A stretch of 64,000 nucleotides of DNA from a virus (IMGVR_UViG_3300033463_000020); one strand, 5' to 3'. Positions 2-62,898 are shown, numbered from the stretch's first letter. Program-made: numbers and translations. Notes: generated from the letters alone by a model not told the origin.

Positions 2-3000
2 ATAGGCAAGGCCGCGTGGAGTAGGGTATTCGCAGGTTTGGGCGGTGCTAATGCAGCAGTGCCCGAAGTGCCTTATCGTATAACATGGAGTGATGCGATG
101 TGGTCGTTCGATACACTTAACACTGGGACAGAAGCGCGTATTAAATTGGGGGCACCGCCTACGGCTATAGATGACTATACATATGCCATTAGTGGGGCCG
201 CTGTTAATGGTGTCGGTAAAATAGGGACCGTTACCGATCATAGTGGTGCTGCTATCACGTTACCCGCGACTTTTGACAGTAGTGCCCTGTATTTCTGGGT
301 TTTGAATGCCAACGCTCCTTTGCGACTATATTTCCCGGTGGAGACTGTGGTCACTGCAGATTATACTAATCCTTATGTCTTAATTCCTACGGGAGACACA
401 GAATTAGTCGTTGGAGCCAATCATACTGCATATGATCTTTTGGTGGTCACTAACAATGCAATGGCCGCAGAGTCGAATCCGGCCTATGTTGTTGCGGGCA
501 ATGGCGCGGCTGCCATTACACGCTTGGATTTCATATTCCCTGCGGATTATAGTGCCCCTCCGAGTACTGTTGTGAATACTGACTATGTCAAGGTAGACAT
601 ATAGGGTACATCGGGTAGTGTAACATTTTCTTGGGTACGCGATGATGCGTCACATGGGCATGTGTTATTATCTGGGGTTACTGCACCATTGAAAGTTGCC
701 ATTTCTGGTATGTTGCGCCTGGCAGCGCCCACCCTAAGTCGTAGTGCGCCCACCAGTACCGTATTAGTTTGGACCAGTATACCGAACGCTACCGCGTACG
801 AGGTATACTTGGACGGCACATTGGTGACTACTACAAGTGCGCAAACATATGATTATGCTGACTATACTGGTACACCCACAGCTGGCTAGCATTTCTGGAC
901 AGTCTGTGCGGAGACAACGACGGGGGCATTTTCGAAAGAAACCTCCCCAGTTATCGCACAGTGGTATACGATCGTTAGCCAGTGTGCACGTTGCGAAGTC
1001 CGTCCGGGCTCAGATAGTGGTACTTGGGATTATACGTCGGCTACAATCTATTATGTGTTTGACACTAGCACGAATTTGGCTTGTCCATGGCAAGTTCCCA
1101 TGAGTAATGGTTAGCCCGGGGTCTGGTAGTGGACGTATTATAACTCGAGTTCGGGCAGCTTGTATATCTTGGGCGAAGATATGGCGGGTCTTGCAGCAGA
1201 TGGTGTCATTACGCAAAATACTTTATATATTAATGTGGGCGCAGTACCTAGGATCACTGCCCCGGTAATTTCATAGCGCGGCACGGTGATTTACTGGAGC
1301 ACGAGAGCCGAAGTAGAGAAATATCGTGTGTATGCCGATTACGGGACGGACGTGTTCACTGTTGATCTCCCCAGGCCCGCCAGTGGTGGTAGGTGCCAGT
1401 ATGATCTCTCCGATTATTTGACTCAAGCTACGACTTATGATATTTCTGTGGTGGCGTTTGGTACCAAGGGTCGTTTTTATGGCACCAGTCTACCTAGCAA
1501 TGTTATTACGGTCACACAAGAAGCGATATATGCTACCACCGAGAACGGTGCTACGGCCGAGGCGTCGAATCCTGATATGATATGGCATGGAACCTCTGTT
1601 GTGTTGAAATATTGGTTTGACGGCGTGAATTATATCTGTCCAACTACTGCGCCAACTGTTACGGGTGCGACAGGCAGCTGGACAAAAATTAGCGACCTGT
1701 ATGGTGAACTAACTATTTCGTCGCCTACTGGTTCGGTAGTATTCACTATTTCTGGCGTACCTGGCGTAAGTACTAGTTATACAACCGTCTGGGATACGGT
1801 GATCGAAGCAAGTGGTACTGCGGGTACGCCGCCCGCGGCCTGGGATGTCACTGAGTCAAGCTTGGCGTATTCATTTATTAGCAATAGCATTGCTTATACT
1901 GGTATTTATATCGACGAATATGGGTGTATGTATTATACGGCGAATAATATAAATACGCTTGTTTTTGATACGGTAGGTGCCGTGGGGCCCACTGGCTGGC
2001 AGGATGAGGGTTATCGCACCATTGTGTCTACCGTAGATCCCGACACAGTATTCTTGCAAGACTGGGCGGTTTTCTACGATAAAAATACCGACGGTGTGAT
2101 TCCCACCCCCTTGTTCCCCGTGCAATGGAACTTTGTCATGGAAACCGAGAGTCCTACAGATGTTGCGAACTATTGGACGGTCCTCGGTTCCTATGTTAAT
2201 GTTGGGTTCTACAGCAATGGCACGTCCTATACACGGTTCTCCGTTGACAGCGATGGTAGCATTTATTATGGTACGACGTCTAGTAACACACTTGTATATG
2301 ACTATATTGCTGGTTGGGTACTGCCTGCATACCGGACAATAGCATGTGAAACGAACCCTGAACTATCTTTTGTTGGCAGTGATTGGAGCGGTTTCTATCG
2401 CGCTAATACTGTCCAAACCTAGTGGAGGAGCAGTCTAGACACTGGTTTAGAAGTTGATGGCGGCTCTATTTGGGGCGTTAGAGACGAGACATTGTCGATT
2501 ACTTTTGTATCTAATAGCACGACATACTCGTCTATTTATATTGATACTGAGGGCAGCATGTATTATGGTGGCACCATGGTATATGAGTATCAGACCGGCT
2601 GGGTGAACGACGAGTATCGCATCATTACGACGGCGCAGCCCGCTACAACCGCATTCAATCACGGCGACTGGCTCACTTTTTATTATGCGAATACCGGCGC
2701 AGTGACGTATTGGCGCAGCAGATTGGAACCTTCAGGAGAGGATATGTCATATGAGGTGCTGAATCGGACCCTGTATTGTGCATTTATGTGCAATGGTACG
2801 ATGTATGCATCGCTGTCTTTTGATAATGCGGGTAATTTTTATTACAACACGGCCCGGTAGTTTGGTGGAGGTACCAAAGTTTACGACAACAATAGTGGCT
2901 GGGTACAGGGCGCCTATCGCTTGATCGCCACCGCTAGCAGCGGTAGCGAAGTCTTTGGCTTTGATGACCAAGACTGGTCAGATTTTTACGACGCGAATGC

Positions 3001-3022
3001 TAACATTACAGATGAAGATTAA
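2..3022 (+). CDS. Large virion structural/tail protein (5' truncated), FN3-like segments plus 4 C-terminal ~75-aa repeats; TAG=Gln
   Basis: ORFs 38-604, 662-889, 1286-2422 and 2492-2860 share one frame and are separated only by TAG; the first TAA is at 3020-3022. Repeat consensus F.SN.T.Y...D..G..YY...VYD..GW...YR.I...DW..FY..N. Confidence 0.75.
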
Positions 3023-3044
3023 AATTTAAAAGGAGGGGGATCTG

Positions 3045-4304
3045 ATGAGTACAACGACTCACTATGTTAATCTTAGTAGCGGCGACACCTTGGCGTTCAC
3101 GATTAATGACGAGGACGCTTTGGGTTATTATGCGAATGCCGGAACGGATATTGCGTGGTTGCAAAATGCTATCTCGGATAATACCGTTCAGGCTATTTTT
3201 CGGATTTATGTTTTATATCCCGACGAAACTATTGCTTATGAGATCCCCCGCGATCGCATTAAGTCTGGCGGTAGCTATAATGAAAATTATCAAAATGGCT
3301 AGCGGCGCACCTTGTCATTTACGTTGTACAACGAGGATGGACAGTACACCCCCAATGTTAATCAATTTTGGGTGGGTACGAAATTGCGTTTAGATATGGG
3401 GCTGTTATTGCCTTCGGGTAATAGCGTGTGGTTCCAAAAAGGCATTTTTGTGATTACCACCGCAGCCCCTTCTAAGGTCCCCGGGGCGCACGAGGTGAAT
3501 ATCTCTGCGGCAGATAAATATTGTTTGTTTGAGCAGGGGCGAGGAGTTTTAGGAAGTACATATGTTGTTCCGGTGAACACCGATATCTATGGTCTTATTT
3601 CGTCGATCTTATTTACCGACGGCGGGAACGGATATCTACTAGATTCAACACCGTTTTTGTTTAACCGTGCGCTGGAAACGAAAAAGACCTAGGCTGAAAT
3701 TACCAAAAGCGCCGGCGATAATTTGGGCAGTATCTTGTCAGATATTGCCCTGCAAATTAATGCTGAGGTTTTTTATAATTCTACAGGCCAATTGGTTTTT
3801 GCTCCGATCCCCGAAGTCACTGCTGATATTAATAAGCCCATTTTATACCATTATGAGACGCCCAAGGGTGACCTGAGTTAGCTGGACTTTAACTTGGATT
3901 ACGCTAATATTGTAAACCGAGTGGTGGTCATTGGCACGTCGTCGTCTGGAGGAACCTTTAGCTATGTGGTCGCTAATGACGATGCAACGTCGCCATTATG
4001 TTGGCAACGGATAGGTTTCCGTACCGGCGAGGTGATTACGGATACTAATATTTATTCGATGTAGCTAGCCAAAGAACGCGCCGAGTATGAGTTGAGATAG
4101 CGCTTAATTTTAACCAGTTCCGTAAATCTCACGATTATGTGCAACCCGTTTTTGTCGGTGAATAATTTAATTACGATTTCTGATGAGTTTTATGGTTTAA
4201 ATCGTGAAAAATTCTTAATTCAGTCTGTGGGATGTGCGTTGGATTTCTCGAACCAGATGCAAATTAGCGTAACAAATATTCGGAACCTACCATTTTTAAC
4301 TTGA
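3045..4304 (+). CDS. Putative baseplate hub/tail protein; TAG=Gln
   Basis: RBS GGAGG; 3045-3302 and 3312-3692 join through TAG to TGA at 4302-4304. Motifs (G.F.I...P, FYN..G.L.F, NRVVVIG, A.ERAEYELR) resemble phage tail hub proteins. Confidence 0.6.
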
Positions 4305-4329
4305 CCTGGGCTGTTTGCCCCAATATAAT
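4301..4329 (+). promoter_or_regulatory. sigma70-type promoter with CCCAA extension
   Basis: TTGACC-17bp-TATAAT; CCCAA directly before the -10 box. Confidence 0.8.
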
Positions 4330-4377
4330 ATCACAGACCCGTAGGGGGCCAATGCAATTATCAGGAAAGGATAAGAT

Positions 4378-4629
4378 ATGGACAAGATTATTGCACAGGA
4401 CTGCACAGAACACGTTAATCATCCACAACACTACAATGTGGGGACAATCGAAACAATTGATTATTTACACAGTGTGCTAGGCCCGGAGGGGTGCTACGAT
4501 TTTTGTGTCGGCAACGTTTTGAAATACGTCAGCCGTGCCAAACACAAAGGCAAACCTCTCGAGGACTTGCAGAAGGCCGAATGGTATTTGCATTATGCTA
4601 TGCAGGTGCTGCGTGAGTCTGAAAAATAA
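4378..4629 (+). CDS. DUF3310-family protein
   Basis: VNHPQHY...IETID...GNVLKYVSRAKHKG...EDLQKAEWYL signature. Confidence 0.85.
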   Translation: MDKIIAQDCTEHVNHPQHYNVGTIETIDYLHSVLGPEGCYDFCVGNVLKYVSRAKHKGKPLEDLQKAEWYLHYAMQVLRESEK

Positions 4630-5656: not shown

Positions 5657-6061
5657 ATGACCGCCGATAAAAACGAGAACACGCCGTCGCTGGTCGACTT
5701 TGATTAGTTGGCCTGCTAGTTGATGGCAGTGCCGGGATCTCCCAAAGAGCTAGTAGCTTCGCCGGAGTTTTCGGAGCGGTATATAGAGCTTACCAATGCT
5801 TTAGCTTCTTTACAGGAACTAAAGAAAAACGTGGACGGCATGATTAAGGACGTGCTTCGTGAATAGTACTATGAAAATGGTGAAAATAGCATTGTCACGC
5901 CAGAGTGTCGTTATACCTATGTGCCTGTTGGCACGCGGGAAACGTTCGACTCCAAGGCGCTAAAGATTGCCGATCCCGAAACATATTGTCGTTATGTAAA
6001 AGTTGCGCAGGTGAGCGATTCTATACGTATTACTAAAAATCGTACTGATGGCACCCAGTAA
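5657..6061 (+). CDS. Hypothetical protein hidden by 3 in-frame TAG
   Basis: ATG after GAGG; frame is open under TAG=Gln. C-terminal RETFDSKALK..DPETY..YVK resembles small proteins associated with phage exonuclease/recombinase genes. Confidence 0.7.
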
Positions 6062-6692
6062 CATGAAGTCCTGGGAGCGGCATGAACTACCCAACGGTGA
6101 GCTGGTCATGTTTAATGCAGACGAGCATGCGTATATCGTACGTGACTAGGTAGTGCCCAGCGTCACAACGCTATTATAGACGGTTTATGGCAATCCATAT
6201 ACCGGCGTGAATCCGGAAACTCTGGACCGCGCAGCGAGATATGGCACTGCGGTACATAGCGAGCTAGAATCGTTGGTAAGCTATCGACAGGAGTGGGGGG
6301 AGGCCCCCACTCCGGAGATGATGCATTTTTAGGAAGTATAGAATTATTTTACCTATATTGAACCTATTTATTAGATAGTGCCGCAGCTCTTAGAGCGCGT
6401 GGTGGTGTTATATGATGCTGCTTAGCGCCCGGTCTCGGCCGGGCGTTTTGATATGCTGTGCACAGTAGCGGGGAAACCCTGTTTGGCCGATTTTAAGACT
6501 ACGTCGGCGATCCATCGCCCCCAAGTTACTGCATAGCTAAACTTATATCGGCGTGCTGCCGAGCAGTCGGGTTATTTGACCCAGGTTGGTTCGGTGTCGC
6601 TGGGGGTGATACACTTGCATGGCGAAACCAGTCGCTTTTTCCCTATCCCTATTTTGGGCGAGAATTTTCTAGAGCGATTTATCCCCAGTTGA
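6048..6692 (+). CDS. PD-(D/E)XK exonuclease hidden by 7 in-frame TAG
   Basis: F...H.Y...VPSVTTLL, YGTAVHSELE, AGRFDML, LADFKTT and A(TAG=Q)LNLY motifs. Absent from the ORF track. Confidence 0.85.
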
Positions 6693-6754: not shown

Positions 6755-7615
6755 ATGAATTTTCCTCTGCTGACCTCTGAAGACATCGAGGTCAAAGTCA
6801 AGACCATTACCAAAACAGGCGCGCTCTTGCTGCTATATAAAACGGCGCGCGTAGACGCCAAAATTTTGGATGAAACCGTAGGCCCGCTGAACTGGTGCTG
6901 TGACTATGAAGAAATTAAAGGTAATCTATTTTGCAGGGTCGGAGTGCGTGAAAGCGCCGACCAGGATTTTGTGTACAAAAGCGATTGCGGCATTGAGTCG
7001 GGCCAGGATGATGGCAACGAGAAGAAAGCCGAGGCCAGTGATGCATTTAAACGCGCCTGCAGCCGCTGGGGCATCGGACGCGAGTTGTACGACAGCTCTC
7101 TGCAGATCTGGGCTGAGGTAGCGACAGTTGAGCGCAATAACAAATGGTATTTACAGGATCCGTTTGCGCGTTATGTCGTAACGTCAATCGAGTATAATGA
7201 GCAGACTCGTGTAATTACGGCGCTCGAAATTTGCAATGCCAAAAGTAATGTGTGCGTCTTTTCATGGCGGCGACCGTCAGAAGGCGCCCTGGGGCGCAAA
7301 ATGGTGAAGACCTGGGGCGGGAATAATGAGTCTACTGATTCTCCGGCCAATACTGAGACGACGCCGAAAGCAGCGCCCAAGACGGTAGCTCAAGCCGAAA
7401 CCACGGATCGGATCCCGTTGGCACAGCTGATCAGCGATATCGGCGGCATGGTTAAGACGATGATGGCTAAAGACGGTGGGGCGGGCGCTTACAAGGACAT
7501 CGTGGCACGCATTGCGGGCAGCGCGTCGTTCCGCTGCAACACTGCCACGGAAGAGCAGTATGATATCGTAAAGGGTATCTACGACGCTCTTGCTGAGGCA
7601 GGATATGGCAACTAA
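6755..7615 (+). CDS. Rad52/Sak-like single-strand annealing protein
   Basis: LLLYKTARVD..ILDETVG...W and KAEASDAFKRACSRWGIGRELY motifs. Confidence 0.85.
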   Translation: MNFPLLTSEDIEVKVKTITKTGALLLLYKTARVDAKILDETVGPLNWCCDYEEIKGNLFCRVGVRESADQDFVYKSDCGIESGQDDGNEKKAEASDAFKRACSRWGIGRELYDSSLQIWAEVATVERNNKWYLQDPFARYVVTSIEYNEQTRVITALEICNAKSNVCVFSWRRPSEGALGRKMVKTWGGNNESTDSPANTETTPKAAPKTVAQAETTDRIPLAQLISDIGGMVKTMMAKDGGAGAYKDIVARIAGSASFRCNTATEEQYDIVKGIYDALAEAGYGN

Positions 7616-8087
7616 AATTTGCCGCGGGTGTAATCAGCATATCGTTGGGATGAACTATGGATACGGTGGCGCTACTTATTGTGCCGCTTGTTTCCAGAAA
7701 CTCCAAGATCGTCTGGCCCACGACGAGGGGGATCGCAGGTTATTATATGACACGATACGTCGTATTTTCAATGTTACCGAGATTCCCGATGAAGTGGTAG
7801 CTGCGGTTAATCGTGAAGTGAAGGCCGGCCGCAAATTGACCGGCCTTACTGCCACCTTACGTTATTATTATGATCTTGAGGGACACGTACCGGGCGGCGT
7901 GTATAGTGCTATTCCGGTATTCCGTGAACAGTACGAGAACGCACGGGATTATGCCCGTAAAATGGCGCAAATTGCGGAGCGTAATCAAAACATAGACCTT
8001 GACGTCCCCCCGACGATAGTAACGGTCACCCCCGAAAGTTTGCGACCTATTCGGCAGCGTCCGACTATCAATATTGAAGATTTGTAA
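7605..8087 (+). CDS. Zn-finger protein upstream of helicase (possible loader)
   Basis: CxxC...CxxC N-terminus; overlaps the Sak stop and precedes DnaB. Confidence 0.55.
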   Translation: MATKICRGCNQHIVGMNYGYGGATYCAACFQKLQDRLAHDEGDRRLLYDTIRRIFNVTEIPDEVVAAVNREVKAGRKLTGLTATLRYYYDLEGHVPGGVYSAIPVFREQYENARDYARKMAQIAERNQNIDLDVPPTIVTVTPESLRPIRQRPTINIEDL

Positions 8088-8113
8088 ATTGACGGAGAGG
8101 AGGAAGTCCGTTT

Positions 8114-9724
8114 TTGGATAACATACAGTCCGTAGAACTACAGACAGGGGTAGCCTCGAATAAACTGGCTATCATGCATGTTTTGGCAGGATTAATTGAC
8201 GACCCTCTTCGTTTTGCTAATAACGCCTACTCCTTTAGCGAGGACGACTTTCCTGAGCGTTTTCATAAGATAGTGTTTGCAGCCATTCAGCATTTGGCGA
8301 TGAATGGAATGGAGCACATAGGGTATATTGATATTGATCAATTTCTTAAGCAGTATGCCGTACAATACAAGGTGTTCTGCGCCAATCGGGGCGTGGAGTA
8401 TATTCAAAACATCATGGCAATGTACGACCCAAAGAAATTTGACTACTATTATCATACACTTAAAAAATATAGTCTGATTAATGACTTAAATGCGAAGGGA
8501 ATCGACACCAAAGATATCTACAATCCCGATATTATTGACCCCATTGAGAGTGAAAAGATGTATCGGACATTCGATAGTCTCACGGTCAATGACATTCTGT
8601 TAACGGAAGAAACTAAAATTATTCTGGCCAAAGAAAAATTTGGTAGCAATAGTGACCGTGTCGAGAACAAGGCCGGTGATGGTCTGCGTGCCTTAAAAGA
8701 GCGCTTCAAAGAAACCCCGGATATGGGGTTGGGATTGTTATCGCCCAAGCTGACCACTATTTTACGCGGGCAGCGTCGAGGGTGTCTGTTTATTGAATCG
8801 GGCGGATCTGGCTTTGGTAAGTCACGTCGTGGCAATGGTGAGGCCTGTCATTTAGCTATCCCCGAATATTATGATACTCAAAAAAAGACCTGGGTGAACA
8901 CCGGGCTGCATGAGAAAGTTCTGATGATTTCCACCGAGCTGGAAGAGTTTGAGTGTCAGCAAATGTGGATGGCTTTCGTCGCGGGTGTTTCCGAGGCGCA
9001 TATCAAAGACGGACGTTACGCCCCGGGAGAGGAAGAGCGCGTTGATAAGGCCATAGATTTAATTGAACGTTCGGAATTATATTTCGTTAGTATTACGAAC
9101 TATGATACGGACGATATTGTCAATATTATCAAGAAATATAAGCAATTGCATGATGTGAACTATGTCTTTTTTGACTATTTGGGCGAGACATTAAAGATCA
9201 CATCATCCGCAACGCGTCAAACCCGGGTGCAGGGGCTGCGTACCGATCAGATCTTGCTTTTGTTATCATCTGCATTGAAAGACACGGCCAAAACACTGGG
9301 TATTTATATCTGGACTGCTTCACAGCTGTCGGGCGATTACAAAAATGCCAAGGATTTAGACGCTGCGTATCTACGATCGGCGAAATCAATCGCTGATAAA
9401 GTGGACGCTGGTTTAATCTTAATGCCCGTGCGCGAAGCCGATCAGCCCGTTATTGATACGTATTGTGCGCGTGGTTTTGAGTTGGCGCCGAATTTTGTTA
9501 TCACAGTCTATAAGGTACGTGCTGGCAGCTATCAAAATATTAAAGTGTACGTCTATTTTGACCGGGCTACGTGCCAAATGTTTGACTGTTTTGTGACCGA
9601 CCGCGATGGTGCGATCCTGCCGATAGAGGACACTAATGTTGACCTGGTGTTGGATGACACGCGGACCGAGGCTTTCTTAGAGGCTTACGATCTCAAGGCT
9701 GGCGATGAGGATTTTGATTTTTGA
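8114..9724 (+). CDS. dnaB: Replicative DnaB-like helicase
   Basis: Walker A SGGSGFGKS, ISTELE, VFFDYL, TASQL, LRSAKSIADKVD, KVRAG. Confidence 0.9.
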   Translation: MDNIQSVELQTGVASNKLAIMHVLAGLIDDPLRFANNAYSFSEDDFPERFHKIVFAAIQHLAMNGMEHIGYIDIDQFLKQYAVQYKVFCANRGVEYIQNIMAMYDPKKFDYYYHTLKKYSLINDLNAKGIDTKDIYNPDIIDPIESEKMYRTFDSLTVNDILLTEETKIILAKEKFGSNSDRVENKAGDGLRALKERFKETPDMGLGLLSPKLTTILRGQRRGCLFIESGGSGFGKSRRGNGEACHLAIPEYYDTQKKTWVNTGLHEKVLMISTELEEFECQQMWMAFVAGVSEAHIKDGRYAPGEEERVDKAIDLIERSELYFVSITNYDTDDIVNIIKKYKQLHDVNYVFFDYLGETLKITSSATRQTRVQGLRTDQILLLLSSALKDTAKTLGIYIWTASQLSGDYKNAKDLDAAYLRSAKSIADKVDAGLILMPVREADQPVIDTYCARGFELAPNFVITVYKVRAGSYQNIKVYVYFDRATCQMFDCFVTDRDGAILPIEDTNVDLVLDDTRTEAFLEAYDLKAGDEDFDF

Positions 9725-9735
9725 GGTGGTGAGCC

Positions 9736-10857
9736 ATGTTAGATAGCAATAAAGTCAAAAAGCGCTTGACCACCGAGAATGTCATTGAGCTATGCTGCAC
9801 GCTACAGGATGACCGGAACGTGTTATATGATGCGCAGGGGCATCCGATTTTCAATACGTGTCTTTGCCACGGGGGAGACAGCGATAAGTTATATTATTAT
9901 CCCGAAACGCAATTGTTCCACTGCTACACCTGCGGTGATAGCTATGATATATTTTCGTTGGTTCAGCGCGCCAAGGGATGCGAATTTCGCGATGCGTTTC
10001 GGTATATCGTTGATTTTTTTAAGCTGAGAGGATTTCGAGACGACAGTGATGAAGATCCTCCGCTGAGCGATGACTGGGATATTTTCCAGCGCATTAAGGA
10101 CTGCGAAACCAATGGGGTCGTGCGCGAAGAAGCGCCCCCGATGCCCGAAAATCTATTGGAATTTTTCTACCCGCTCGCCGCGCCTCAGGAGTGGCAGCGC
10201 GATGGCATCAGCCCACAGGTCATGCGTGCCTTCGGCATTCGGATAGATAGTGCCTTGCAGCATATCATTATCCCGCACCGTAACGTGCGAGGTGAGCTTA
10301 TTGGGATCCGGCGGCGCTCTTATGATCCGCTGGAAGTAGCCGGTGGTAAGAAGTATATGCCGGTAATGATCGAGGGCGATATATATCGTCATAGTCTAGG
10401 CAGCAATTTATTTGGGCTATATGAAAATCAGCGTGTTATTCATAACACGCAAAAAGTTTTAGTAGCCGAATCCGAGAAGTCGGTTTTGCAACTCGCTAGT
10501 ATGTACGGGCTCGATCAGTGCTGGGCAGTTGCGACATGTGGCTCGTCGTTTTCACAGACGCAGATGAGCCTGCTACTGGAGCTCGGAGTATCTGAAGTGG
10601 TTTTGGGATTTGACCATGAGTTTACTGGTGGCCGCGGCGCAGATGATACTGTGGCGTATGAGGCTAAGCTTTTGAAAGTGGTGGCCCCTCTATTACCATA
10701 CGTCAATGTTTCGGTAATCATGGACTATGATGGATTGACGAAGTATAAGGACTCGCCCACTGATTGTGGCCGCGAGATTTTTGAACAACTTTATCACCAG
10801 CGGATACGGTTGTATACTTATGATGAAAAAAGAAAGACGAGGAAAAGGAATGGCTGA
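9736..10857 (+). CDS. dnaG: DNA primase (CHC2 Zn finger + TOPRIM)
   Basis: CH...FHCYTC Zn finger; IIIPHRN..GELIGIRRR; VAESEKS; LGFDHE. Confidence 0.85.
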   Translation: MLDSNKVKKRLTTENVIELCCTLQDDRNVLYDAQGHPIFNTCLCHGGDSDKLYYYPETQLFHCYTCGDSYDIFSLVQRAKGCEFRDAFRYIVDFFKLRGFRDDSDEDPPLSDDWDIFQRIKDCETNGVVREEAPPMPENLLEFFYPLAAPQEWQRDGISPQVMRAFGIRIDSALQHIIIPHRNVRGELIGIRRRSYDPLEVAGGKKYMPVMIEGDIYRHSLGSNLFGLYENQRVIHNTQKVLVAESEKSVLQLASMYGLDQCWAVATCGSSFSQTQMSLLLELGVSEVVLGFDHEFTGGRGADDTVAYEAKLLKVVAPLLPYVNVSVIMDYDGLTKYKDSPTDCGREIFEQLYHQRIRLYTYDEKRKTRKRNG

Positions 10858-11833
10858 AAAATTTTCTTATTCCAAGCTGAATACTTTTGAAGCCTGTGGG
10901 TGGAAATATAAGCTATAGTATGTAGATGGACATTATATTTCTGCAGATTCGCTGGCTATTTAGCTCGGTCTGCTGGTGCACGGGATCGAGGAAGAGATCG
11001 CACGCACTATTCAAATGGGGGGCAAGCCGGACTACGACAAACTGAAAGATAAATTTCAAAACGCGGGGATGGGTGGTGCTGCAACACCGGATCATCGTAG
11101 TGCCCTACAGGGGATTAAAGTTCTGTAGGAAAAATTCAAAGAAGATTTCTTTGAGCCCGATGACCGGGGTGCTTCATATCACACTCGCACGGAAGATTAT
11201 TTAGCTTATGGCATTTATCGCCTGGAGCGTTATTTGGCCCAGCATCCAACTTTAGAGATCTCGGGCATTGAGCAGTTCTTCTCTATAAATTTCCAGGGGA
11301 ATGTTCTGAGTGGTTATATCGACCGTGTCTTCCATGACCGCGAAACCAATATGTATTATGTCGAAGATATCAAAACACGGGCCAAGCCCTTCCGCGATAC
11401 CGAGCTTAATACTCCGTTACAGTTTGTTATATACGTGTATGCCCTGGCCGAGAATCTGGGGTTGGATTACAGCCATTTCCAATGCGCTTATGATCTTCCC
11501 TTTTTGGATACGAAACAAGTTGCAGGATCCTCCGGCTTTATGTCGCGAGGTCTGAAGAAAATACGTGAAGCGTTTGGAGATATCAAAGATAAAAACTTTG
11601 TGCCGTCACCGTCGCCACTGTGCCGGTGGTGCCAATTTTCTCCAACCAACCCCGGACAGCCGGAGGCCGGTAAATTATTGTGTCCATATTATTCGTTATG
11701 GACTCAAGAAAATCGGATCCACACAGTGGCTCACAAGTGGGAGGGCATTGAGCGTCATCCGGCTATTATGGCGGATGAAGTGCGGGCCCAAACGGCGAGT
11801 GAATCCAAAGTCTTGTCTGAGTTCGACTTCTGA
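10850..11833 (+). CDS. PD-(D/E)XK nuclease, Cas4/AddB-like with 4 Cys; 3 in-frame TAG
   Basis: FSYSKLNTFEAC N-terminus joined through TAG to GYIDRV, EDIKT, LQFVIY, CRWC...C. Confidence 0.85.
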
Positions 11834-11845
11834 AAGGATTAAAGC

Positions 11846-12316
11846 ATGGGGAACGTAGTGCACGAAATTAGTCGTGTGACTTTGAATTTTGACGCCCTGG
11901 AGGAATGGCGGGATACTGCCGCTGATGATATTCCTATTTGTAGTTTACTAGGGCTATATCGCGCTGCCGGCATTGTGGAAATTATGTCAGAGTATGCGGC
12001 ACAACATTCCGGTATGCAGTTCTGTGCATTGGACAATTTGTCGTGTAATTTCTACACCTTGTAGCACATACGGCGTTTTGTGACCGACAATTGGCGTAAA
12101 TTTTCTTTGCGCCTAGAGGGGGATTGCAAGATCCGGTGGGATACGCATCGTTATGCGAAAGGTGTGGCGCACCGTCCATTCAATTTAAAGGCCAAGGTGC
12201 AGCACAGCCTCAATCTAGACTTTGCGAACTTTTGTCCGGCCATAGATGATGAGCTGCCCGATGATGTGATCGTATTTGCGGTCCCTGGGGCTCCGGAGAG
12301 CGACGATAAAACTTGA
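11846..12316 (+). CDS. Hypothetical protein (1 in-frame TAG)
   Basis: 11846-12064 and 12080-12316 share a frame and join at TAG 12062. Confidence 0.65.
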
Positions 12317-12341
12317 CGAATAAGTTGTACCCCAATATAAT
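12313..12341 (+). promoter_or_regulatory. sigma70-type promoter with CCCAA extension
   Basis: TTGACG-17bp-TATAAT upstream of dnaE. Confidence 0.85.
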
Positions 12342-12372
12342 GATAGTGAATAACAAAGAAAGGCACGTAGTC

Positions 12373-15300
12373 GTGAGTAATTTTGTTTCCTTGCACAATC
12401 ATAGTTGGGCCAGCAACTTGAGATTTTTAGATTGTATAAACCGGCCCAAGGAAATGGTGGACAAAGCCCTCTCCTTGGGCTTTTCGGGTCTGGCGTTTAC
12501 TGATCACGAAGCGCTATCAGCGGCTGTCGAGATTCTGAAAGCCCGCGATGCTATTCGGAAGGATCATCCCGATTTTAAGATTATCTTCGGCAATGAGATA
12601 TACTTAATTGATCAGACTGAAGTTGGACAAACACGTGATTTTTATCACTTTATTTTGTTGGCCAAAGATTTAACGGGCTGGGACCAGTTGCGCGCCCTGT
12701 CTTCCCGTGCTTGGGAGCGAGGCTACGTAGATCGTGGGCAACGGAGAGTGCCGACCACCTATCAGGATCTCGAGGAAATTGTGAAAGCCAATCCCGGCCA
12801 TCTCTTGGCTAGCACTGCTTGTTTGGGCGGGCGCCTGGCTAAGGCCATTTTGGCTCATGATGTTCAGGGTGCCAATGAATTTGTGCGTTGGTGCATCGAC
12901 GTGTTCGGGAGCGAGAATTTTGCGCTCGAATTGCAGCCGGCAAATTCCGACGAGCAGATCCAGGTGAATCACACCTTGCTGCGTTTTAGCCAGTATTATA
13001 ATATTCCATATATTATTACGACGGATAGCCATTATTTGAACAAAGAGGACTTCGTTGTTCATTCGGCTTTTTTAAATAGTAAACAGACCACTGATCGGGA
13101 AACGGATAAGTTCTATCGTTTCACGTATATGATGAGCCTGGAGGAAATGCGAGAGATCTTGCAGGCTTCAGGACTGACGAACGATGAGATTGAGCGGGGT
13201 TTTCAAAATACAGTAGAGCTGACCGCAGCAATGGAAGATTATGATTTCCGTCATGGAACTATTGTCCCGCGTATTAAGATCCCCGATTTTCAACTCAGCA
13301 AAATTTTATATGCATATGATGGCTATCCGGCCATTCGTAAACAGTATGATAGTGCCGATGACCAAGACCGTTATTTGATGTATCAAATCGAACAAGGTTT
13401 GCAGCATAAGCATGTTACTATCACCACAGTGATACTTGAACGTATTGATGCCGAGTTGGATATTCTTCAGTATATCAGTGAACAGATTGGACAGAACCTC
13501 AGTTCTTATCTGAATTTGACTGTAAATATCGTTGATATCGCGTGGCAGGTTAGCTTGGTTGGGACTGGGCGTGGATCTGCCTGCGGTTTCTATATTAATT
13601 ATCTTATTGGTATTACGCAGGCTGATCCTCTACAATATAATTTGGCGCACTGGCGGTTCCTTAATAAGGAACGCGCGGAGCTACCAGATGTCGACGAAGA
13701 TTTTCAGCCGGAAAAAACGGACGACATCGTACGGTTATTGCGCGAAGCTTACGGCGAAGATAACGTGTTAAATTGCGCTACCTTTAAAACGGAAAGCTTA
13801 AAGAGTGCGATCCTTAGCTGTGGGCGTGGCCTGGGATACAATAATGATGAGATGCAAGCTTTGGCGGCACTGGTGCCGGAGCATCGTGGACACTTTTATA
13901 CCTTAGACGAATGCCTGGTCGGCGATACCGAAAAGGGTTTCGATCCTGTGCCGGGCTTTGAGGGTAAATTCGTGGCGTACCCGGGCCTGCTAGAAGCCGT
14001 TCGTAAGATCGAGGGGCTGCCTACCAATTCCAGCATTCACGCTAGTGCTCTATATGTTTTTAATAACGGGTTTTTAGCTCAAAACAGCATGATGCGCGCG
14101 CCCAACGGTACTAAGATCACAGCTTTTAATATGCACGATAGTGACGACCTGGGCGCTTTAAAGATGGACGTGCTTCGAACCGATGCCCAGTCTAAGATCG
14201 CGAAATGCATGGAGCTCTTGTTGGCTGATCAGCAGATGGAATGGAAGGGTTCGTTACGCGCGACCTATGATTACTATCTGCATCCCGATGTCTTGCAGTA
14301 TGACAACCCACAGATGTGGGCTGATATGGCAGACGGGAAGATCGCCAATTTGTTCCAGTTCGAGACTCAGGTCGGGGCTGTCTGCATTAAGAAAGCGCGT
14401 CCCACTGATGTTATGGAGCTGGCCGAAATTAACTCTATCATGCGTCTGCAGGCGGACGAAGGCGAACAGCCTATTGATCGGTATGTGCGTTTTCGGAACA
14501 ATCCGGTGGCGTGGGATCTCGAGATGATTGAAGAGGGGCTGACCACTCACGAAATGGACATCCTTAAAAAGTATCTTTCCGGGAGTCATGGAGTGTCCGG
14601 TTCCCAGGAAGTGCTTATGCGCATCTTGATGGATCCGGAGGTTTGTGGATTCACGCTGGGGGAAAGTAACGCGGCCCGTAAGGCGATTGCTAAAAAGATC
14701 GCCACGAAACTTATTCAGTTAAAAGCCGACTTTTATGAAAAGGGCGGACAACGAGCCCGCAAGGAGTTCCTGGACTATGTCTGGACCTATTGTATTGAAC
14801 CTCAGTTGGGCTATTCGTTTTCCATTAACCATACCCTACCGTACTCTTTAATTGCCCTGCAGGAAGCTAACCTGGCCACCCGCTGGGATCCGCTATATTG
14901 GAAGTGCGCATGTCTTTGCGTGAATTCAGGCAGCTATGTGGGCGCCATGGGCGACGAGGACGATGAAGCCGACGATAGCGAAGGGGTAGATGAGAGTGCC
15001 GATGGTAAACGCCATGTTGCGCCTAACTATGGCAAGATCAGCCGCGCCATTACGGACGCGCAGCGAGCAGGGGTAAATATCGAACTACCGGATATTAATC
15101 GGGCTCAGGCGGATTTTGTACCTGATATAGAAAATCAAAGTATTCTCTATAGTTTGCGGGCTGTTACCGTTGTGGGCGATAACTTATTGGCTGCAATTAT
15201 CGCGGGGCGTCCTTATCAGTCCATGCAAGATTTTGTTACGCGCGTACAGCCTACACGTGCCCAGATGATCGGTCTGATTAAAGCGGGATGCTTTGACGCT

Positions 15301-16251
15301 CTTGAGGGGCAGCCGCGTATGCGCATTATGACGCGTTATCTGCAGCAACTTGCCGACGAGGACTACCCGTTAAAAGATAAGCTGACCCTGGTACAGATAC
15401 GTAAGGCAATTGATATGGGGTGGACCACCCCGGAATTTGCGGAGTCGATACGTATTTTAAAATTCAAGCAATACGTAGAGGCGCACTGCCAGGATACGGA
15501 AAATAAAAGGCTTCTTTTATCAGACGATAAATGCATTAAATTTTTCGAACAGTATATTATGAACCAGCTGAACCTGACTAAGGGAGAGTACAGCGTGCTG
15601 CCCGGGGGACGGTTGGCTGTAAAACTCACAGCGTTCCGAAAAGTGATTACCGCGTTGCTGGCGCCGGTGGTAGAGTATTTTAATACCGAGGCCGGGCGAC
15701 AGGCATATAAAGATTTGCTGCAGGGGGCCTTCCTAAAGGAAATGTGGGAGACCAAGTGTGCGGGATCGATTTCACGCTGGGAGATGGAAACATTAAACTT
15801 TTACTATAGCGGGCACGAATTGCGCAGTGTCGGTAAGGCCAAGTATGGCATCGGTAGCTTCTTTGCGCTGCCTGAGCGTGGTGATAATCCGCGCATGATT
15901 GCACTGGTTGGTACGGTAACCGACACGAACAATACCCGGCATACTATCAGTCTATTAACACCTGAAGAGGGTGTAGTTGACGTAAAGTTCTATGGCGGTA
16001 CTTATGCGCAGTACAACCAGCGGATCAGTATTATTGACGCCGCTACACAGAAAAAAACTGTTGTGGACGAAAGCTGGTTGAAGCGGGGTACGTTATTACT
16101 CATATATGGTATCCGAAAAGAGAACATGTTCCACGCGCGCACTGACCGTAGCGGTCCACTGCCGCGAACCATCGGTCTGATCGAACAGATACATTCTGAT
16201 GGCACATTAGGGGTCCGGTATGCACGCCGGCGGAAAGTCGAGAGTAAATGA
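12373..16251 (+). CDS. dnaE: DNA polymerase III alpha subunit (family C)
   Basis: PHP domain (LHNHS, FTDHE, TTDSHY), GRGSA, catalytic PDVDED, C-terminal OB fold. Start placed at GTG 12373, downstream of the promoter. Confidence 0.95.
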   Translation: MSNFVSLHNHSWASNLRFLDCINRPKEMVDKALSLGFSGLAFTDHEALSAAVEILKARDAIRKDHPDFKIIFGNEIYLIDQTEVGQTRDFYHFILLAKDLTGWDQLRALSSRAWERGYVDRGQRRVPTTYQDLEEIVKANPGHLLASTACLGGRLAKAILAHDVQGANEFVRWCIDVFGSENFALELQPANSDEQIQVNHTLLRFSQYYNIPYIITTDSHYLNKEDFVVHSAFLNSKQTTDRETDKFYRFTYMMSLEEMREILQASGLTNDEIERGFQNTVELTAAMEDYDFRHGTIVPRIKIPDFQLSKILYAYDGYPAIRKQYDSADDQDRYLMYQIEQGLQHKHVTITTVILERIDAELDILQYISEQIGQNLSSYLNLTVNIVDIAWQVSLVGTGRGSACGFYINYLIGITQADPLQYNLAHWRFLNKERAELPDVDEDFQPEKTDDIVRLLREAYGEDNVLNCATFKTESLKSAILSCGRGLGYNNDEMQALAALVPEHRGHFYTLDECLVGDTEKGFDPVPGFEGKFVAYPGLLEAVRKIEGLPTNSSIHASALYVFNNGFLAQNSMMRAPNGTKITAFNMHDSDDLGALKMDVLRTDAQSKIAKCMELLLADQQMEWKGSLRATYDYYLHPDVLQYDNPQMWADMADGKIANLFQFETQVGAVCIKKARPTDVMELAEINSIMRLQADEGEQPIDRYVRFRNNPVAWDLEMIEEGLTTHEMDILKKYLSGSHGVSGSQEVLMRILMDPEVCGFTLGESNAARKAIAKKIATKLIQLKADFYEKGGQRARKEFLDYVWTYCIEPQLGYSFSINHTLPYSLIALQEANLATRWDPLYWKCACLCVNSGSYVGAMGDEDDEADDSEGVDESADGKRHVAPNYGKISRAITDAQRAGVNIELPDINRAQADFVPDIENQSILYSLRAVTVVGDNLLAAIIAGRPYQSMQDFVTRVQPTRAQMIGLIKAGCFDALEGQPRMRIMTRYLQQLADEDYPLKDKLTLVQIRKAIDMGWTTPEFAESIRILKFKQYVEAHCQDTENKRLLLSDDKCIKFFEQYIMNQLNLTKGEYSVLPGGRLAVKLTAFRKVITALLAPVVEYFNTEAGRQAYKDLLQGAFLKEMWETKCAGSISRWEMETLNFYYSGHELRSVGKAKYGIGSFFALPERGDNPRMIALVGTVTDTNNTRHTISLLTPEEGVVDVKFYGGTYAQYNQRISIIDAATQKKTVVDESWLKRGTLLLIYGIRKENMFHARTDRSGPLPRTIGLIEQIHSDGTLGVRYARRRKVESK

Positions 16252-19581: not shown

Positions 19582-20781
19582 ATGACCAGTATATATTTGG
19601 ACGGGGCTGCTAATACCCCACTCTCAAGGGCTGCATTCCGTGCTATGCGGCCCTTTTTACGGCACGGGCTAGGGAACACTATGTCTGTGCACCATTTTGG
19701 CGTCGCCATGTTTACAGCGTTGGAGTAGGCGCGCGATACTATTGCCACGCTAACGCATGCGCGCCCCGAGGAGATTTTCTTTACTTCTGGAGCCACCGAA
19801 GGCAACAATTAGGCGATTATGTCTGCTGCCCAGCAATGGCGGGCCACGCACGAAACGGGAGGCCATATTATTTGTTCGGCGTTGGAGCACGATTCGGTAT
19901 TAAAGTGTTGTGTTAGAGTCGCCGAGATAATGCATTTTGATGTTTCTTTTGTACTGCCCAAGCAGGAAAATGGCTATCGTATAGACATGGCGGATATCAC
20001 CCCTTTGCTTCGACCGGATACTTTTCTGATCTGTGTTATGGAAGTAAACAACGAGCTGGGGACACGGAATCATGTGGCTCAAATTGCTTAGGAAGCCACT
20101 CTGCGCGGTATTGCCACACTAGTAGATTGTACCCAAGGGATTAGTACCGGGGGATCAAGTGTGGCTATCGCCAGTCGTATACCCTGTGCCACTTATTTAA
20201 CTTGTTCTGCGCATAAATTTTATGGCCCCACAGGCGTAGGGCTGTTAATTGCTCGGCGTGCGTTGGAACCGCTGATTGTCGGTGGAGGGCAAGAATAGGG
20301 GGCACGCGGCGGCACCCACAATTTGGCGGCTATCGTAGGCATGGCCGCAGCGCTAAAAGAATTGCACCGGACAGATTACTCGGGTCATTACCAGGCGTTA
20401 ACTAATCACCTGTGTGTGCGTTTAGCAACCAGCCTACCAGATGCCAGATTTAATGTGTGGCCCGACGCGCCCGGCATTGTAAGCCTTAACTGTGGCGCTA
20501 TGATCACCAGCGGACATTTAGCCAGCATGCTGGATAGTTATGGTATCGCAGTGAGTGCGGGTTCGGCATGTGATGCTGATCACGATGAAACCGCGGGGCA
20601 ATTTCACGCCTCTCACGTGTTAACTGCTCTTGGTTTGAGCGAAACGGAAATTCGTAACACAATACGCGTATCCTTTATTCGTACGACAACCATGAGGGAT
20701 ATTGATCGATTAGTGTTTGCGTTACGAGATTTATATGATTTATATTATTCTTCTGCAAAGGAGCCAAATGTTACAGTATGA
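19582..20781 (+). CDS. iscS: Cysteine desulfurase IscS/NifS (4 in-frame TAG)
   Basis: IYLD.AA, FTSGATEGNN, LEHDSV, VNNELGT, PLP-binding SAHKFYGP, GGGQE.G.RGGT, catalytic SAGSAC. TAG at 19726, 19810, 20089 and 20296. Confidence 0.92.
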
Positions 20782-21284: not shown

Positions 21285-21285
21285 A

Positions 21286-21669: not shown

Positions 21670-21677
21670 GGCAATGG

Positions 21678-22444: not shown

Positions 22445-22448
22445 GACC

Positions 22449-24037: not shown

Positions 24038-24062
24038 TAATTGTAGCACACCCCAATATAGT
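24034..24062 (+). promoter_or_regulatory. sigma70-type promoter with CCCAA extension (variant)
   Basis: TTGATA-17bp-TATAGT. Confidence 0.65.
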
Positions 24063-24095
24063 AAGTATAATGTTTGAGGAAGGAACAAGATTTTT

Positions 24096-25779: not shown

Positions 25780-25808
25780 TGGACAAATGAAATCCACCCC
25801 AATATAAT
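25780..25808 (+). promoter_or_regulatory. sigma70-type promoter with CCCAA extension, upstream of the tRNA island
   Basis: TGGACA-17bp-TATAAT. Confidence 0.75.
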
Positions 25809-51346: not shown

Positions 51347-52912
51347 ATGGCAACAATTAGATTAGTGCCAAGCACTTATGCAGTAAATCATAGCAGTTAT
51401 GTTAGTGTTACTAATCCATCTAATATGTATAATAATACTGACCATACGAGTAATTATGCCTCAATTAAAGGACGTAATAATAGTAGTAATACATATTATT
51501 GTTATGTAAGAGGCTTTAATTTTGATGATGTACCTAGTGGCGCTATTGTATCCGCTTTTTCAGTTAAAATTCGTGCTTATCGAAATAGTTATTTAAATAC
51601 AAGTTCAAGTTATTATTTAAGCCTTTGTAACGGTACTTCTGCTATTAGTAATACCGCTTTAACGTCTGCTCTTACAACAACCTCTACAGTTTATACTTTT
51701 CCAACTACTACTTTATCATGGGATACTATTAAAGGTTACGGCTCTGACTTTGGGATATATATACCATTACGTAGAGGTAGTAGTAGTGGCACACCTTATG
51801 TATATGTATATGGTATTGAGATTGAAGTTACTTATGCTCTGGCTAACCCTCGCACTATTACATCTACTTTAACTGGTAGCGGCACGATTAACCCCAGTGG
51901 AGCCTAGACGTATTACGATGGTGATACCTATACTTTAACTATTACTCCCACTGACACAGCGTCTGCTGTTACAGTAACTAAAGATAATGTTGATGTTTCA
52001 TCTAACTTGATAGCTCACTATCATAGAGAAGGGGGCACATCAAGTAGTACTAGTGTGACGTTAGGCACTTATGCATTAGTGAGTGGAGGATTTAACGGGT
52101 CGGGCGCTTCATATTTTTCTGGTTTAGTAGGAAAAAGCCATACAAATTCTTCTGGTTCAAGTAACTATTATTCTAGCGGTAGTGGTACAATTGCAGTATT
52201 TACTTATGATGTTGGAGTAACCTTACCAAGCGATGCCGAGATTACTGGAATTACAGTTTAGGTAAGTGGCCATGCGGAAAGCACATCATAGTCTTCAGAA
52301 TATATGTGCGCATAGTTAGTATCGAGTGATTTAAATACTGAATTTACTAGCGAATTAAATTTTAAAAGTATCGGAACCTCTAACTCAGTACAAACATTAA
52401 CAGCCACTACCTTACCAACCGTTGCTTAGGCGGCAAATATGAAATTACAATGCCGTTTAGGTTATTATGGTGGAGCGTTAGGTGGAGCAACAGTAACTGT
52501 AACTTATACTACTGGTGGTACTTAGGTATTAGATTACTATACGTATTCATACACGGTCAGCGGCGACGCAACTATTAATGTTACCATTGTATCTCCTGTC
52601 GCTGCAACGGTTACGTCGACTCTTACGGGGTACGGAACGATCAGCCCCAGCGGCGCGACGAGTACTTACGAGGGGCGAAGCTATACTTTAACAATTACGC
52701 CTGATGAGAGTACTTATATAGTAACTGCTACAAAAAATAATGTAGATATTACAAGCAGTCTTGTTAATCATACTACGTATTATACCTATACTTATACTGT
52801 AGATGGTAATGCGACGATTGCTGTTGTTATAACCAGACCTGCTAAATTATGGGTGAAAATCAACGCGGGTAACGAGGTCTTTATCGGCACCGCTTATTAT
52901 CACGAGACCTGA
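51347..52912 (+). CDS. Tail/adhesin protein with Ig-like repeats; TAG=Gln
   Basis: Frame open under code 15 to TGA at 52910; two TSTLTG.GTI.PSGA...YTLTITP repeats; AT-rich. Confidence 0.75.
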
Positions 52913-62384: not shown

Positions 62385-62396
62385 TTACCGGGATGA

Positions 62397-62436
62397 GGGA
62401 GGCGCACGGGGATCTCCCGTGCTCCTCCTTTTTTTA
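62397..62436 (+). terminator. Rho-independent terminator
   Basis: GGAGG(C)GCACGGG-GATCT-CCCGTGCTCCTCC followed by T7. Confidence 0.8.
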
Positions 62437-62488
62437 CCCCCCTGTCATCTTTTGTTCATATTTGATTCATAAAAAGGAGAGCCTAAAA

Positions 62489-62710
62489 ATGCGAAAATTT
62501 AGAAGAGAAATGCTTCGGCGCGAGGCCGTAAAGCAGAAGGTCAGTCCGAGCAAATATGTTCGTCTGGCCTGGGATATTATGCAGAAAAAGCTTGTCGGTG
62601 AGAATATTCGCAAGCGTAATCAGGCCCGCGGAACCCACAAAAGGAGCACCTGGAAGGCCCGGATGACGGCCTCCACACGCATCCAAAAAGCTATCAAGAG
62701 CAAGGAATAA
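62489..62710 (+). CDS. Small basic protein
   Basis: RBS AAGGAG; K/R-rich. Confidence 0.6.
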   Translation: MRKFRREMLRREAVKQKVSPSKYVRLAWDIMQKKLVGENIRKRNQARGTHKRSTWKARMTASTRIQKAIKSKE

Positions 62711-62718
62711 GACCGGGC

Positions 62719-62898
62719 ATGGACATCAAAACCTGCGAAGAATACGTGCTGGCGGAGCTGAAACAGGCCCAGCTGGAGGCCCGCTATTGGCATAAACGCG
62801 CCAGTATTCTGGCCTAGAAACTCGCCATCTACGAGGCGGCTGCCAAACTCCGCAAGGGGCCTCGCCCCACCCCGGAGTCTCCGCCTCCCACCGATTAA
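62719..62898 (+). CDS. Small hypothetical protein (1 TAG)
   Basis: MDIKTCEEYVLAEL start; open under code 15. Confidence 0.55.

Follow-up and report, generated by a model that had tools for sequence, protein, structure and literature searches.

The stretch of DNA analysed here, one 64-kb window of the viral genome IMGVR_UViG_3300033463_000020 (GC content 47.4%, zero N), comes from a large tailed phage and contains a long array of genes interrupted by in-frame TAG codons, together with a tRNA cluster that includes an amber suppressor with the anticodon CUA (Table 1). Credible genes are found on the + strand only. A preceding sequence-only reading proposed that TAG is recoded to Gln throughout the window; the observation behind this proposal is confirmed, and its interpretation is supported both by the gain in coding density and by the abundance of Gln in the alignment columns occupied by TAG. 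As that reading stated, code-15 gut phages are already known and their own suppressor tRNAs have been described (bioRxiv 10.1101/2021.08.26.457843; PMC9523058; PMC10607447), so the recoding itself is ordinary and well documented. Three features go slightly beyond the standard account, namely the Trp-type backbone of the suppressor although TAG is clearly read as Gln, the comparatively high GC content and a densely recoded exonuclease. Taken as a whole, the explanation that we regard as highly probable is that TAG encodes Gln (NCBI code 15), with TAA and TGA as the sole stops, and that it is decoded by the phage's own CUA tRNA.

That TAG is a sense codon in this phage follows from the behavior of the reading frames. 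Open reading frames (ORFs) of at least 200 aa cover 0.48 of the window under code 11, 0.80 if TAG is sense, and 0.56 and 0.66 if TGA or TAA, respectively, is sense; readthrough of TAG lengthens the longest ORF from 1314 to 2113 codons. The coding density found by one greedy caller, applied uniformly, rises from 72.7% under code 11 to 93.9% if TAG is sense (code 15), compared with 79.3% if TGA is sense (code 4) and 82.5% if TAA is sense, and the mean gene length increases from 205 aa under code 11 to 331 aa under code 15. The gain of 21 points, obtained in the comparison of codes 11 and 15 that the sequence-only reading had advocated, exceeds that for the other reassignments and lies above the gain of more than 5-10 points under code 15 relative to code 11 that is used by Kienbeck et al. 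as a sign of recoding (bioRxiv 10.1101/2023.06.13.544163).

The gene set of the + strand with TAG translated as Gln comprises 69 ORFs with approximately 135-138 in-frame TAGs and 95.7% coding sequence, terminated by 36 TGA and 33 TAA codons, and about two thirds of the genes of at least 75 aa (34 of 51) contain at least one TAG. A few small ORFs of this set, located inside the tRNA cluster, are probably spurious. Three of them (27218-27670, 27762-28016 and 28094-28549) were rejected as probably not genes, being free of family matches and overlapping tRNAs or a drum RNA, and the 9 TAGs that they contain are not to be counted as recoded codons. Among the code-11 ORFs of at least 80 codons on the + strand, 45 end in TAG; beyond these, the next 76 codons (median) in the same frame are free of stops, the corresponding medians being 14 codons for TAA and 7.5 for TGA (Mann-Whitney P = 7e-9); TAA and TGA thus retain their stop meaning, with frames shutting soon past either. 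No gene of the window requires TAG as a stop, whereas the standard-code relative introduced below ends 22 of its 152 genes in TAG. The sequence-only reading was right that all joined genes terminate in TAA or TGA, although this follows in part from the procedure by which the genes were joined. Four genes that it had described as invisible under the standard code (5630-6061, 6048-6692, 26625-26987 and 44414-44644) are indeed absent from the table-11 list of ORFs of at least 80 aa and are recovered when TAG is read as Gln. The TAG positions are evenly distributed along gene length, and the nucleotide following TAG has a distribution much like that following CAG.

An alternative is that the standard code applies and that the TAGs are true stops in a decaying or fragmented element, or else assembly errors. 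Many ORFs of 80-500 aa do remain under code 11; however, the frames are interrupted by TAG alone and never by TAA or TGA, and homology runs on past the TAGs, with one unbroken HMMER alignment for each protein crossing the 4 TAGs of the cysteine desulfurase and the 2 TAGs of PhoH. Furthermore, 7 TAG positions are conserved in a recoded relative with 45-90% protein identity over the shared genes, a dedicated CUA tRNA is present in the window, and coding density reaches 94% with readthrough of TAG. The standard-code alternative, to which we assign practically no probability, is refuted by these tests.

Table 1. Features of the 64-kb window that are relevant to TAG recoding, with positions counted from its first nucleotide
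Feature	Position	Strand	Details
Recoded gene array	2..62898	+	About 65 genes, ~135 in-frame TAGs, all stops TAA/TGA
First region, including exonuclease	0-6.7 kb		TAG 22/73 Gln-type codons (30%)
Exonuclease (phrog_298)	6048..6692	+	TAG 7/12 Gln-type codons; invisible under code 11
Region of Rad52-like, DnaB, DnaG, DnaE, RecD2-like genes	6.7-18.7 kb		TAG 6/170 Gln-type codons (4%)
TAG-poor replisome block: Rad52-like, DnaB, DnaG, DnaE (Pol III alpha), RecD2-like helicase	6755..18641	+	
Class-V aminotransferase, cysteine desulfurase-like	19582..20781	+	4 in-frame TAGs; one continuous PDB-chain alignment across all
TAG-free block: dUTPase, nucleoside deoxyribosyltransferase, xanthine/uracil-family permease, small ORFs	20778..25114	+	
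Region of dUTPase, deoxyribosyltransferase, permease	20.8-25.1 kb		TAG 0/33 Gln-type codons (0%)
Promoter-like site TGGACA-17-TATAAT	25780..25808	+	11/12 consensus matches (sigma-70-like); 55 nt upstream of first tRNA of the trio
Nine-tRNA cluster: Leu-CAA, Sup-CUA, Gln-UUG, Leu-UAA, Ser-ACU, Asn-GUU, Arg-UCG, Pro-UGG, Leu-UAG	25864..29531	+	ARAGORN, Rfam
Amber suppressor tRNA, anticodon CUA	26139..26213	+	ARAGORN and Rfam (51.7 bits)
tRNA-Gln(UUG)	26295..26369	+	Starts 81 nt past suppressor
Terminator-like hairpin with T-rich tail	26373-26391		Follows tRNA-Gln(UUG); consensus match only
2105-aa tail-like repeat protein	29896..36213	+	12 TAGs; repeat copies: 5 TAG, 2 CAA/CAG
Region of tail and structural genes	29.9-60.4 kb		TAG 77/269 Gln-type codons (29%)
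PhoH-like ATPase	41775..42608	+	2 TAGs; 42456 on conserved Q of GDxxQxD
521-aa structural-module protein	51347..52912	+	TAG 6/8 Gln-type codons
Tandem paralogues	58275-59234 and 59237-60328	+	4 TAGs each

The amino acid inserted at TAG was approached through two relatives. The first (IMGVR_UViG_3300028048_000063, hereafter G001) is a genome of 150,079 bp, rated complete, with 34% GC and the standard code, and is syntenic with window positions 3045-25773 at 38-76% amino-acid identity; the second (IMGVR_UViG_3300028914_000231, hereafter G002) spans 33.9 kb with 42% GC, is itself TAG-recoded and corresponds to the 29-61 kb part of the window. TAG was translated as X before alignment, so that no bias toward Gln was introduced. 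Of the 21 TAG sites aligned to G001, 9 are CAA in that genome and the others are scattered; in G002, 7 sites are likewise TAG, 7 are Gln and 5 are Lys. When the sense-aligned sites of both relatives are pooled (n = 44), Gln is found at 16, Lys at 7 and every other residue at no more than 2. Against a background of 2.95%, this is a strong enrichment of Gln (16/44, binomial P = 6e-14), and the Gln share at TAG sites (36%) approaches the 44% at which ordinary Gln codons are conserved in these alignments; the test of TAG columns for Gln suggested by the sequence-only reading thus came out in its favor. With substitution frequencies derived from the 8,032 aligned pairs of this comparison, the log-likelihoods of the candidate meanings are -109.0 for Gln, -144.0 for Lys, -153.8 for Arg and -197.7 for Trp, that is, Gln is ahead of Lys by 35 nats and ahead of Trp by 89 nats.

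Comparisons inside the window point in the same direction, TAG alternating with CAA and CAG in internal repeats and tandem paralogues, and here every TAG coordinate listed in the sequence-only reading proved exact. The repeat Y-A-T-x-A-x-x-D-D-G-G-N-[x]-I-S-T has TAG at 31819, 32218, 32749, 33280, 34540 and 38982, and two more copies have CAA at 33982 and CAG at 35242; the sixth TAG-bearing copy lies in the protein encoded at 38601-41123, outside the 2105-aa repeat protein. In the tandem paralogues, TAG 59184 (AY*SATNW) pairs with CAA 60272 (TYQAASNW) of the neighboring gene. TAG 6534 in the nuclease corresponds to CAA in the standard-code relative (VTAQLNLY), and TAG 42456 in PhoH corresponds to the Q of GDITQVD in PDB 3b85. 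In the 521-aa protein, TAG 51905 is matched by CAA or CAG in 7 of 10 more distant relatives and TAG 52427 in 7 of 8. These relatives (L001-L012) share with the window only the 521-aa protein and the repeat proteins, and hence provide few orthologous TAG sites. Judged by these alignments, TAG means Gln in the window phage.

Some columns nevertheless speak against this assignment. TAG falls off Gln at some deeply conserved positions: the Q-E-[R]-G column of the cysteine desulfurase has R in PDB homologues and F in G001, and its N-N-[L/I]-A column has W in the standard-code relative; Lys, moreover, is the second commonest partner of TAG. By the same alignments, these off-Gln columns are variable within the phage lineage, and the Q-E-R-G column in particular appears free to vary there because the standard-code relative has F at this position. 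The frequency of Lys (7 of 44 sites), along with the report that LysRS is able to mis-acylate amber suppressors with U35 (PMC9976931), could be taken to mean that TAG is read ambiguously or as another residue, whether Lys, a mixture of Gln and Lys, or pyrrolysine, the last also being the label (Pyl) that ARAGORN gives to the CUA tRNA, as it does to any tRNA with this anticodon. We consider such a reading highly unlikely: Lys is 35 nats worse than Gln, exchange of Gln and Lys is also common at ordinary Gln codons, and G73 of the suppressor disfavors LysRS, which uses A73. Pyrrolysine decoding would involve a pylT-type tRNA together with pylS and pylBCD, whereas the CUA tRNA is an ordinary cloverleaf and neither pyl genes nor any Pyl-related family was found among the window proteins.

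The suppressor tRNA contains G2-C71, G3-C70, G10, U35, A37 and G73, with U1/C72 unpaired and CCA encoded. It folds as an ordinary cloverleaf whose variable loop is short, a shape that speaks against a pylT-type tRNA and, for a bacterial tRNA, against Leu, Ser or Tyr identity. The reference set of 46 tRNAs used for comparison comprised E. coli trpT, gln and neighboring tRNAs, 30 tRNAs of one Christensenellaceae metagenome-assembled genome (MAG), and the tRNAs of the window and of G001. In global alignment, E. coli tRNA-Trp matches best (55 of 75 positions identical), followed by a Christensenellales tRNA-Trp (54 identical), and the best tRNA-Gln has 50 identical positions, so that derivation of the suppressor from tRNA-Gln was ruled out by the better tRNA-Trp matches. 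BLAST of the 75-nt suppressor against 121 Christensenellales genomes returned tRNA-Trp(CCA) genes as the only significant matches (E = 2.5e-5, 85% identity over nt 2-41); in these tRNA-Trp genes, the 5' acceptor strand and the D-arm are near-identical to those of the suppressor. In the anticodon arm, 14 of 15 bases are the same as in E. coli tRNA-Trp, the sole difference being C35U, the middle base of the anticodon. The suppressor had no blastn match in E. coli genomes. An exact-pattern search of IMG/VR found no tRNA-Trp(CCA) that shares the suppressor backbone, and the CUA version of the search retrieved Lak-like contigs only. On the strength of these matches, the suppressor has a Trp-type backbone.

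This resemblance raises the alternative that TAG encodes tryptophan, in a manner similar to code 32, with TrpRS still charging the suppressor. Apart from having tRNA-Trp as its nearest bacterial tRNAs, the suppressor possesses the Trp identity elements G73, G2-C71, G3-C70, G4-C69, G5-C68 and A9, and Kienbeck et al. (bioRxiv 10.1101/2023.06.13.544163) report that, in theta-ribozyme phages, 19.4% of the amber suppressors have a predicted Trp isotype. Yet Trp occupies only 2 of the 44 aligned TAG sites, although ordinary Trp is 73% conserved in these alignments; its log-likelihood is 89 nats below that of Gln; and the suppressor has U35 instead of C35, which is a major determinant for TrpRS, and U1/C72 instead of A1-U72. 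The chance that TAG means Trp in this phage is accordingly very small. The published Trp identity set consists of G73, A1-U72, G2-C71 to G5-C68, A9 and C34/C35/A36, and the bacterial Gln identity set consists of G73, U1-A72, G2-C71, G3-C70, G10, U34/U35/G36, A37 and U38; an amber derivative of tRNA-Trp has been reported to be aminoacylated with Gln (PMC9976931). The suppressor carries the GlnRS identity elements U35, G73, G2-C71, G3-C70, G10 and A37, together with a weak 1-72 pair.

We therefore lean, with some caution, towards the hypothesis that the amber suppressor is a natural counterpart of su+7, i.e., a Clostridia-type tRNA-Trp turned into a Gln-inserting UAG decoder through C35U and a broken 1-72 pair. 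Under this scenario, the suppressor would have descended from a Clostridia-type tRNA-Trp, with the anticodon changing from CCA to CUA through replacement of C35 by U and with A1-U72 giving way to the unpaired U1/C72, which would remove a Trp determinant and imitate the weak first pair preferred by GlnRS. The host GlnRS would then charge the suppressor with Gln, as it does E. coli su+7, and the charged tRNA would compete with the host release factor 1 (RF1). Two points tell against this scheme: searches of the window proteins turned up neither a release factor nor a synthetase nor an RF1 inhibitor, and the assignment of the host draws on nothing beyond a permease of 56% identity and tRNA similarity. 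If the su+7-like hypothesis is true, the Trp-isotype amber suppressors that isotype predictors assign to about one fifth of recoded gut phages would insert Gln rather than Trp, and the 'code 32' calls for phages that carry them would be artefacts.

The suppressor sits between tRNA-Leu(CAA) and tRNA-Gln(UUG) and, given the promoter-like and terminator-like sites on either side, this trio forms a putative transcription unit. CCA is encoded in all nine tRNAs of the cluster. The codons that are read by the phage tRNAs and are enriched in TAG-bearing genes are TTA, CTA, CCA and CAA. Both spacers of the trio were examined for structure. The 81-nt spacer between the suppressor and tRNA-Gln (26214-26294) folds into a four-way cloverleaf with a 6-bp closing stem and hairpin loops of 4, 5 and 5 nt, with a minimum free energy (MFE) of -38.4 kcal/mol (z = -3.5; 0 of 200 shuffles as stable); it is called a tRNA by neither ARAGORN nor Rfam and may be a degenerate tRNA or a processing element. 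The 198-nt gene-free spacer between tRNA-Leu(CAA) and the suppressor (25941-26138) has a nested MFE no better than that of shuffles (z = -0.59) and no Rfam match. With regard to ribozymes of the HDV-like (hepatitis delta virus-like) or theta type, no ribozyme family was detected in 25700-29700 at Rfam E values up to 1, the presence of a theta model in Rfam 15 being unchecked. Several other elements of the cluster are worth recording. A drum RNA (RF02958) was identified at 28171-28289, at full length and with 46.0 bits against a gathering threshold of 43, and the TAG-containing ORF that overlaps it (28094-28549) is probably no gene. The tRNA-Ser at 27396-27486 has the unusual anticodon ACU (A34), and tRNA-Arg(UCG) at 28027-28123 is 97 nt long, with a long unpaired insert at the position of the variable loop.

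The use of TAG is uneven across the window. Overall, TAG accounts for 20% of Gln-type codons, and the unevenness is highly significant (chi-square 100.4, 34 df (degrees of freedom), P = 2e-8). The most TAG-dense genes are the exonuclease and the 521-aa protein, DnaE has 0 TAG among 63 Gln-type codons (P = 7.5e-7), and the RecD2-like helicase has a single TAG, at 17832. In TAG-free genes, CAG constitutes 72% of Gln codons and the GC content at third codon positions (GC3) is higher, whereas TAG-bearing genes use CAA (38%), CAG (34%) and TAG (28%), which indicates that TAG mainly replaced CAG. The published pattern, with recoded structural genes and a standard-code replication core, is seen here as well (Table 1), with the first 6.7 kb as the exception.

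This distribution is compatible with a timing switch governed by the suppressor. The core replisome and nucleotide-metabolism genes avoid TAG and so would be translatable by the standard host machinery, whereas the suppressor would be needed by the structural and tail genes, the recombination exonuclease, the cysteine desulfurase, PhoH and ClpP, and also by the C-terminal third of the RecD2-like helicase. In that case, recoding may control recombination and the mode of replication as well as lysis and assembly, via the TAG-gated exonuclease and the C-terminus of the RecD2-like protein. Two observations count against such a switch, namely that recombination and metabolic genes with TAG are interleaved among TAG-free ones and that a host-type promoter-like site precedes the suppressor; a simple early/late switch is thereby weakened and is unproven. 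No Pth2-like amber-gated gene was found in the window. It is possible, although less likely, that TAG means Gln without any timing switch, the suppressor being produced as soon as infection begins; the TAG-free blocks would then reflect either history, through module exchange with phages of the standard code, or selection acting on genes with high expression, but not regulation. This possibility agrees with the location of the tRNA trio behind a near-consensus sigma-70-like site, the intermixing of TAG-bearing and TAG-free genes in the 0-20 kb module, the codon style that TAG-free genes have of their own (both in their CAG share and in GC3), and the fact that the replication module, but not the structural module, is common with a standard-code phage. 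However, avoidance of TAG in the replisome recurs in unrelated recoded phage clades (Borges et al.), suggesting selection, and DnaE lacks TAG altogether while the nearby exonuclease is rich in it.

Among cultured phages, the closest homolog of DnaE is YorL, a protein from SPbeta-like Bacillus phages, with 37% identity along 99% of the DnaE length. Neither megablast with the DnaE/RecD2 region nor tblastn with the 521-aa protein produced a match among GenBank phages, and in a search of IMG/VR with DnaE, patterns were matched and no relatives were confirmed. The alignments of DnaB and DnaE between G001 and window positions 8114-16251 are partial, the G001 loci being much longer: approximately 600 codons precede the DnaB C-terminal match, compared with 236 in the window, and about 8 kb separate RecD2 from the N-terminal 800 aa of DnaE. 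The extra length points to inteins, introns or inserted genes in the DnaB/DnaE region of G001. The 521-aa protein is shared at 46-49% identity with four contigs (L005-L008: 3300028591_000180, 3300028887_000119, 3300031993_004496 and 3300033463_000039), in which ORF coverage rises when TGA is sense; in the last of these, 13 in-frame TGAs lie opposite W. By this evidence, these more distant relatives appear to read TGA as Trp, so that codes 11, 15 and 4 are all represented among the relatives, as Borges et al. report for several clades, and the family of the 521-aa protein likewise extends over all three codes.

With respect to the host, the window permease is 56% identical to a gene of a Christensenellaceae MAG, in which a GlnRS-type anticodon-binding domain is present and no GatB was detected. 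Together with the tRNA matches, this hints at a host among Clostridia, possibly Christensenellales, that has GlnRS. The permease gene itself (22350-23753; xanthine/uracil family, Pfam E = 7e-51) is TAG-free and adjoins the dUTPase and nucleoside deoxyribosyltransferase genes; it may be a host-derived nucleobase-uptake gene. Two further genes deserve mention. The 38601-41123 protein (840 aa, 6 TAGs) has a weak match to Hom_end_hint at residues 549-584, which with E = 1e-4 is below the cut-off. In the papain-family (Peptidase_C1) gene at 43580-44392, TAG directly precedes the terminal TGA and could specify a C-terminal Gln or be a leftover stop.

These observations have practical and evolutionary implications. 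Annotation of this phage needs table 15, given that table 11 loses about one fifth of the coding sequence and misses or truncates the exonuclease, a YunG-like protein and most of the tail proteins. A three-way comparison becomes available, in which the window phage is TAG-recoded with 47% GC, G001 shares the replication module with the standard code and 34% GC, and the more distant relatives that share the structural protein would read TGA as Trp; three codes among relatives support the published view of fast-changing genetic codes in phages. A Gln-inserting suppressor derived from tRNA-Trp, if our reading of its sequence is right, would provide a concrete account of how a codon can acquire a new meaning with the use of host enzymes only. 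It also calls for caution in that tRNA isotype predictors alone are unsafe for inferring the amino acid.

Among known systems, a close parallel is with the recoded gut phages of Borges et al., who described TAG-to-Gln recoding in these viruses (bioRxiv 10.1101/2021.08.26.457843); insertion of Gln at TAG in phage peptides has been proven by proteomics (PMC9523058), and about 40% of code-15 phage genomes carry a CUA suppressor tRNA. As in the window, TAG aligns with Gln in those phages, which have their own CUA suppressor, mostly standard-code replication genes and recoded structural genes, originate from animal guts and have close relatives with codes 11, 15 or 4. The window differs in its GC content of 47%, which is above that of its relatives (34% and 42%) and above the proposed low-GC route to recoding, in the density of TAG in the recombination exonuclease and its presence in metabolic genes, and in that neither RF2 (release factor 2) nor a synthetase was seen in it. 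With the Agate clade (genome size 154 +/- 27 kb; Borges et al.), the size and the mixed codes among relatives fit; TerL, the basis of the clade phylogeny (placement with at least 95% bootstrap support), lies outside the window. The phage phAss-1 of the proposed Phassvirus is likewise a gut phage (~136 kb), with 28% of its ORFs broken by TAG, CUA suppressors, no dedicated synthetase and table 15 (PMC10607447), but it has three suppressor copies with a predicted Gln isotype, compared with the single copy with a Trp-type backbone in the window.

At the level of the tRNA itself, several comparisons can be drawn. Theta-ribozyme-linked suppressors, which are defined by an HDV-like ribozyme with its cleavage site no more than 5 nt from the tRNA 3' end, resemble the one in the window in being amber suppressors of code-15 gut phages, with the Trp-isotype fraction given above; they differ in that the window has no Rfam ribozyme match, encodes CCA and has the 81-nt cloverleaf-like spacer after the suppressor. 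For the Trp-isotype amber suppressors in their list, Kienbeck et al. do not commit themselves to an amino acid (bioRxiv 10.1101/2023.06.13.544163). Prevotella phage Lak-B2 and related IMG/VR contigs are TAG-recoded genomes with a CUA tRNA that has the same D-arm and anticodon arm (78.7% over 61 nt), but the Lak tRNA has a paired U1-A72, does not encode CCA and has a different T-arm, and the Lak phages (~550 kb, 25% GC) are otherwise unrelated to the window phage. A further parallel is E. coli su+7 (supU), which has a tRNA-Trp backbone, the change of C35 to U and insertion of Gln at UAG (PMC9976931), Gln being also the residue predicted for the window; unlike su+7, the window tRNA is natural and phage-borne and adds U1/C72 in place of A1-U72.

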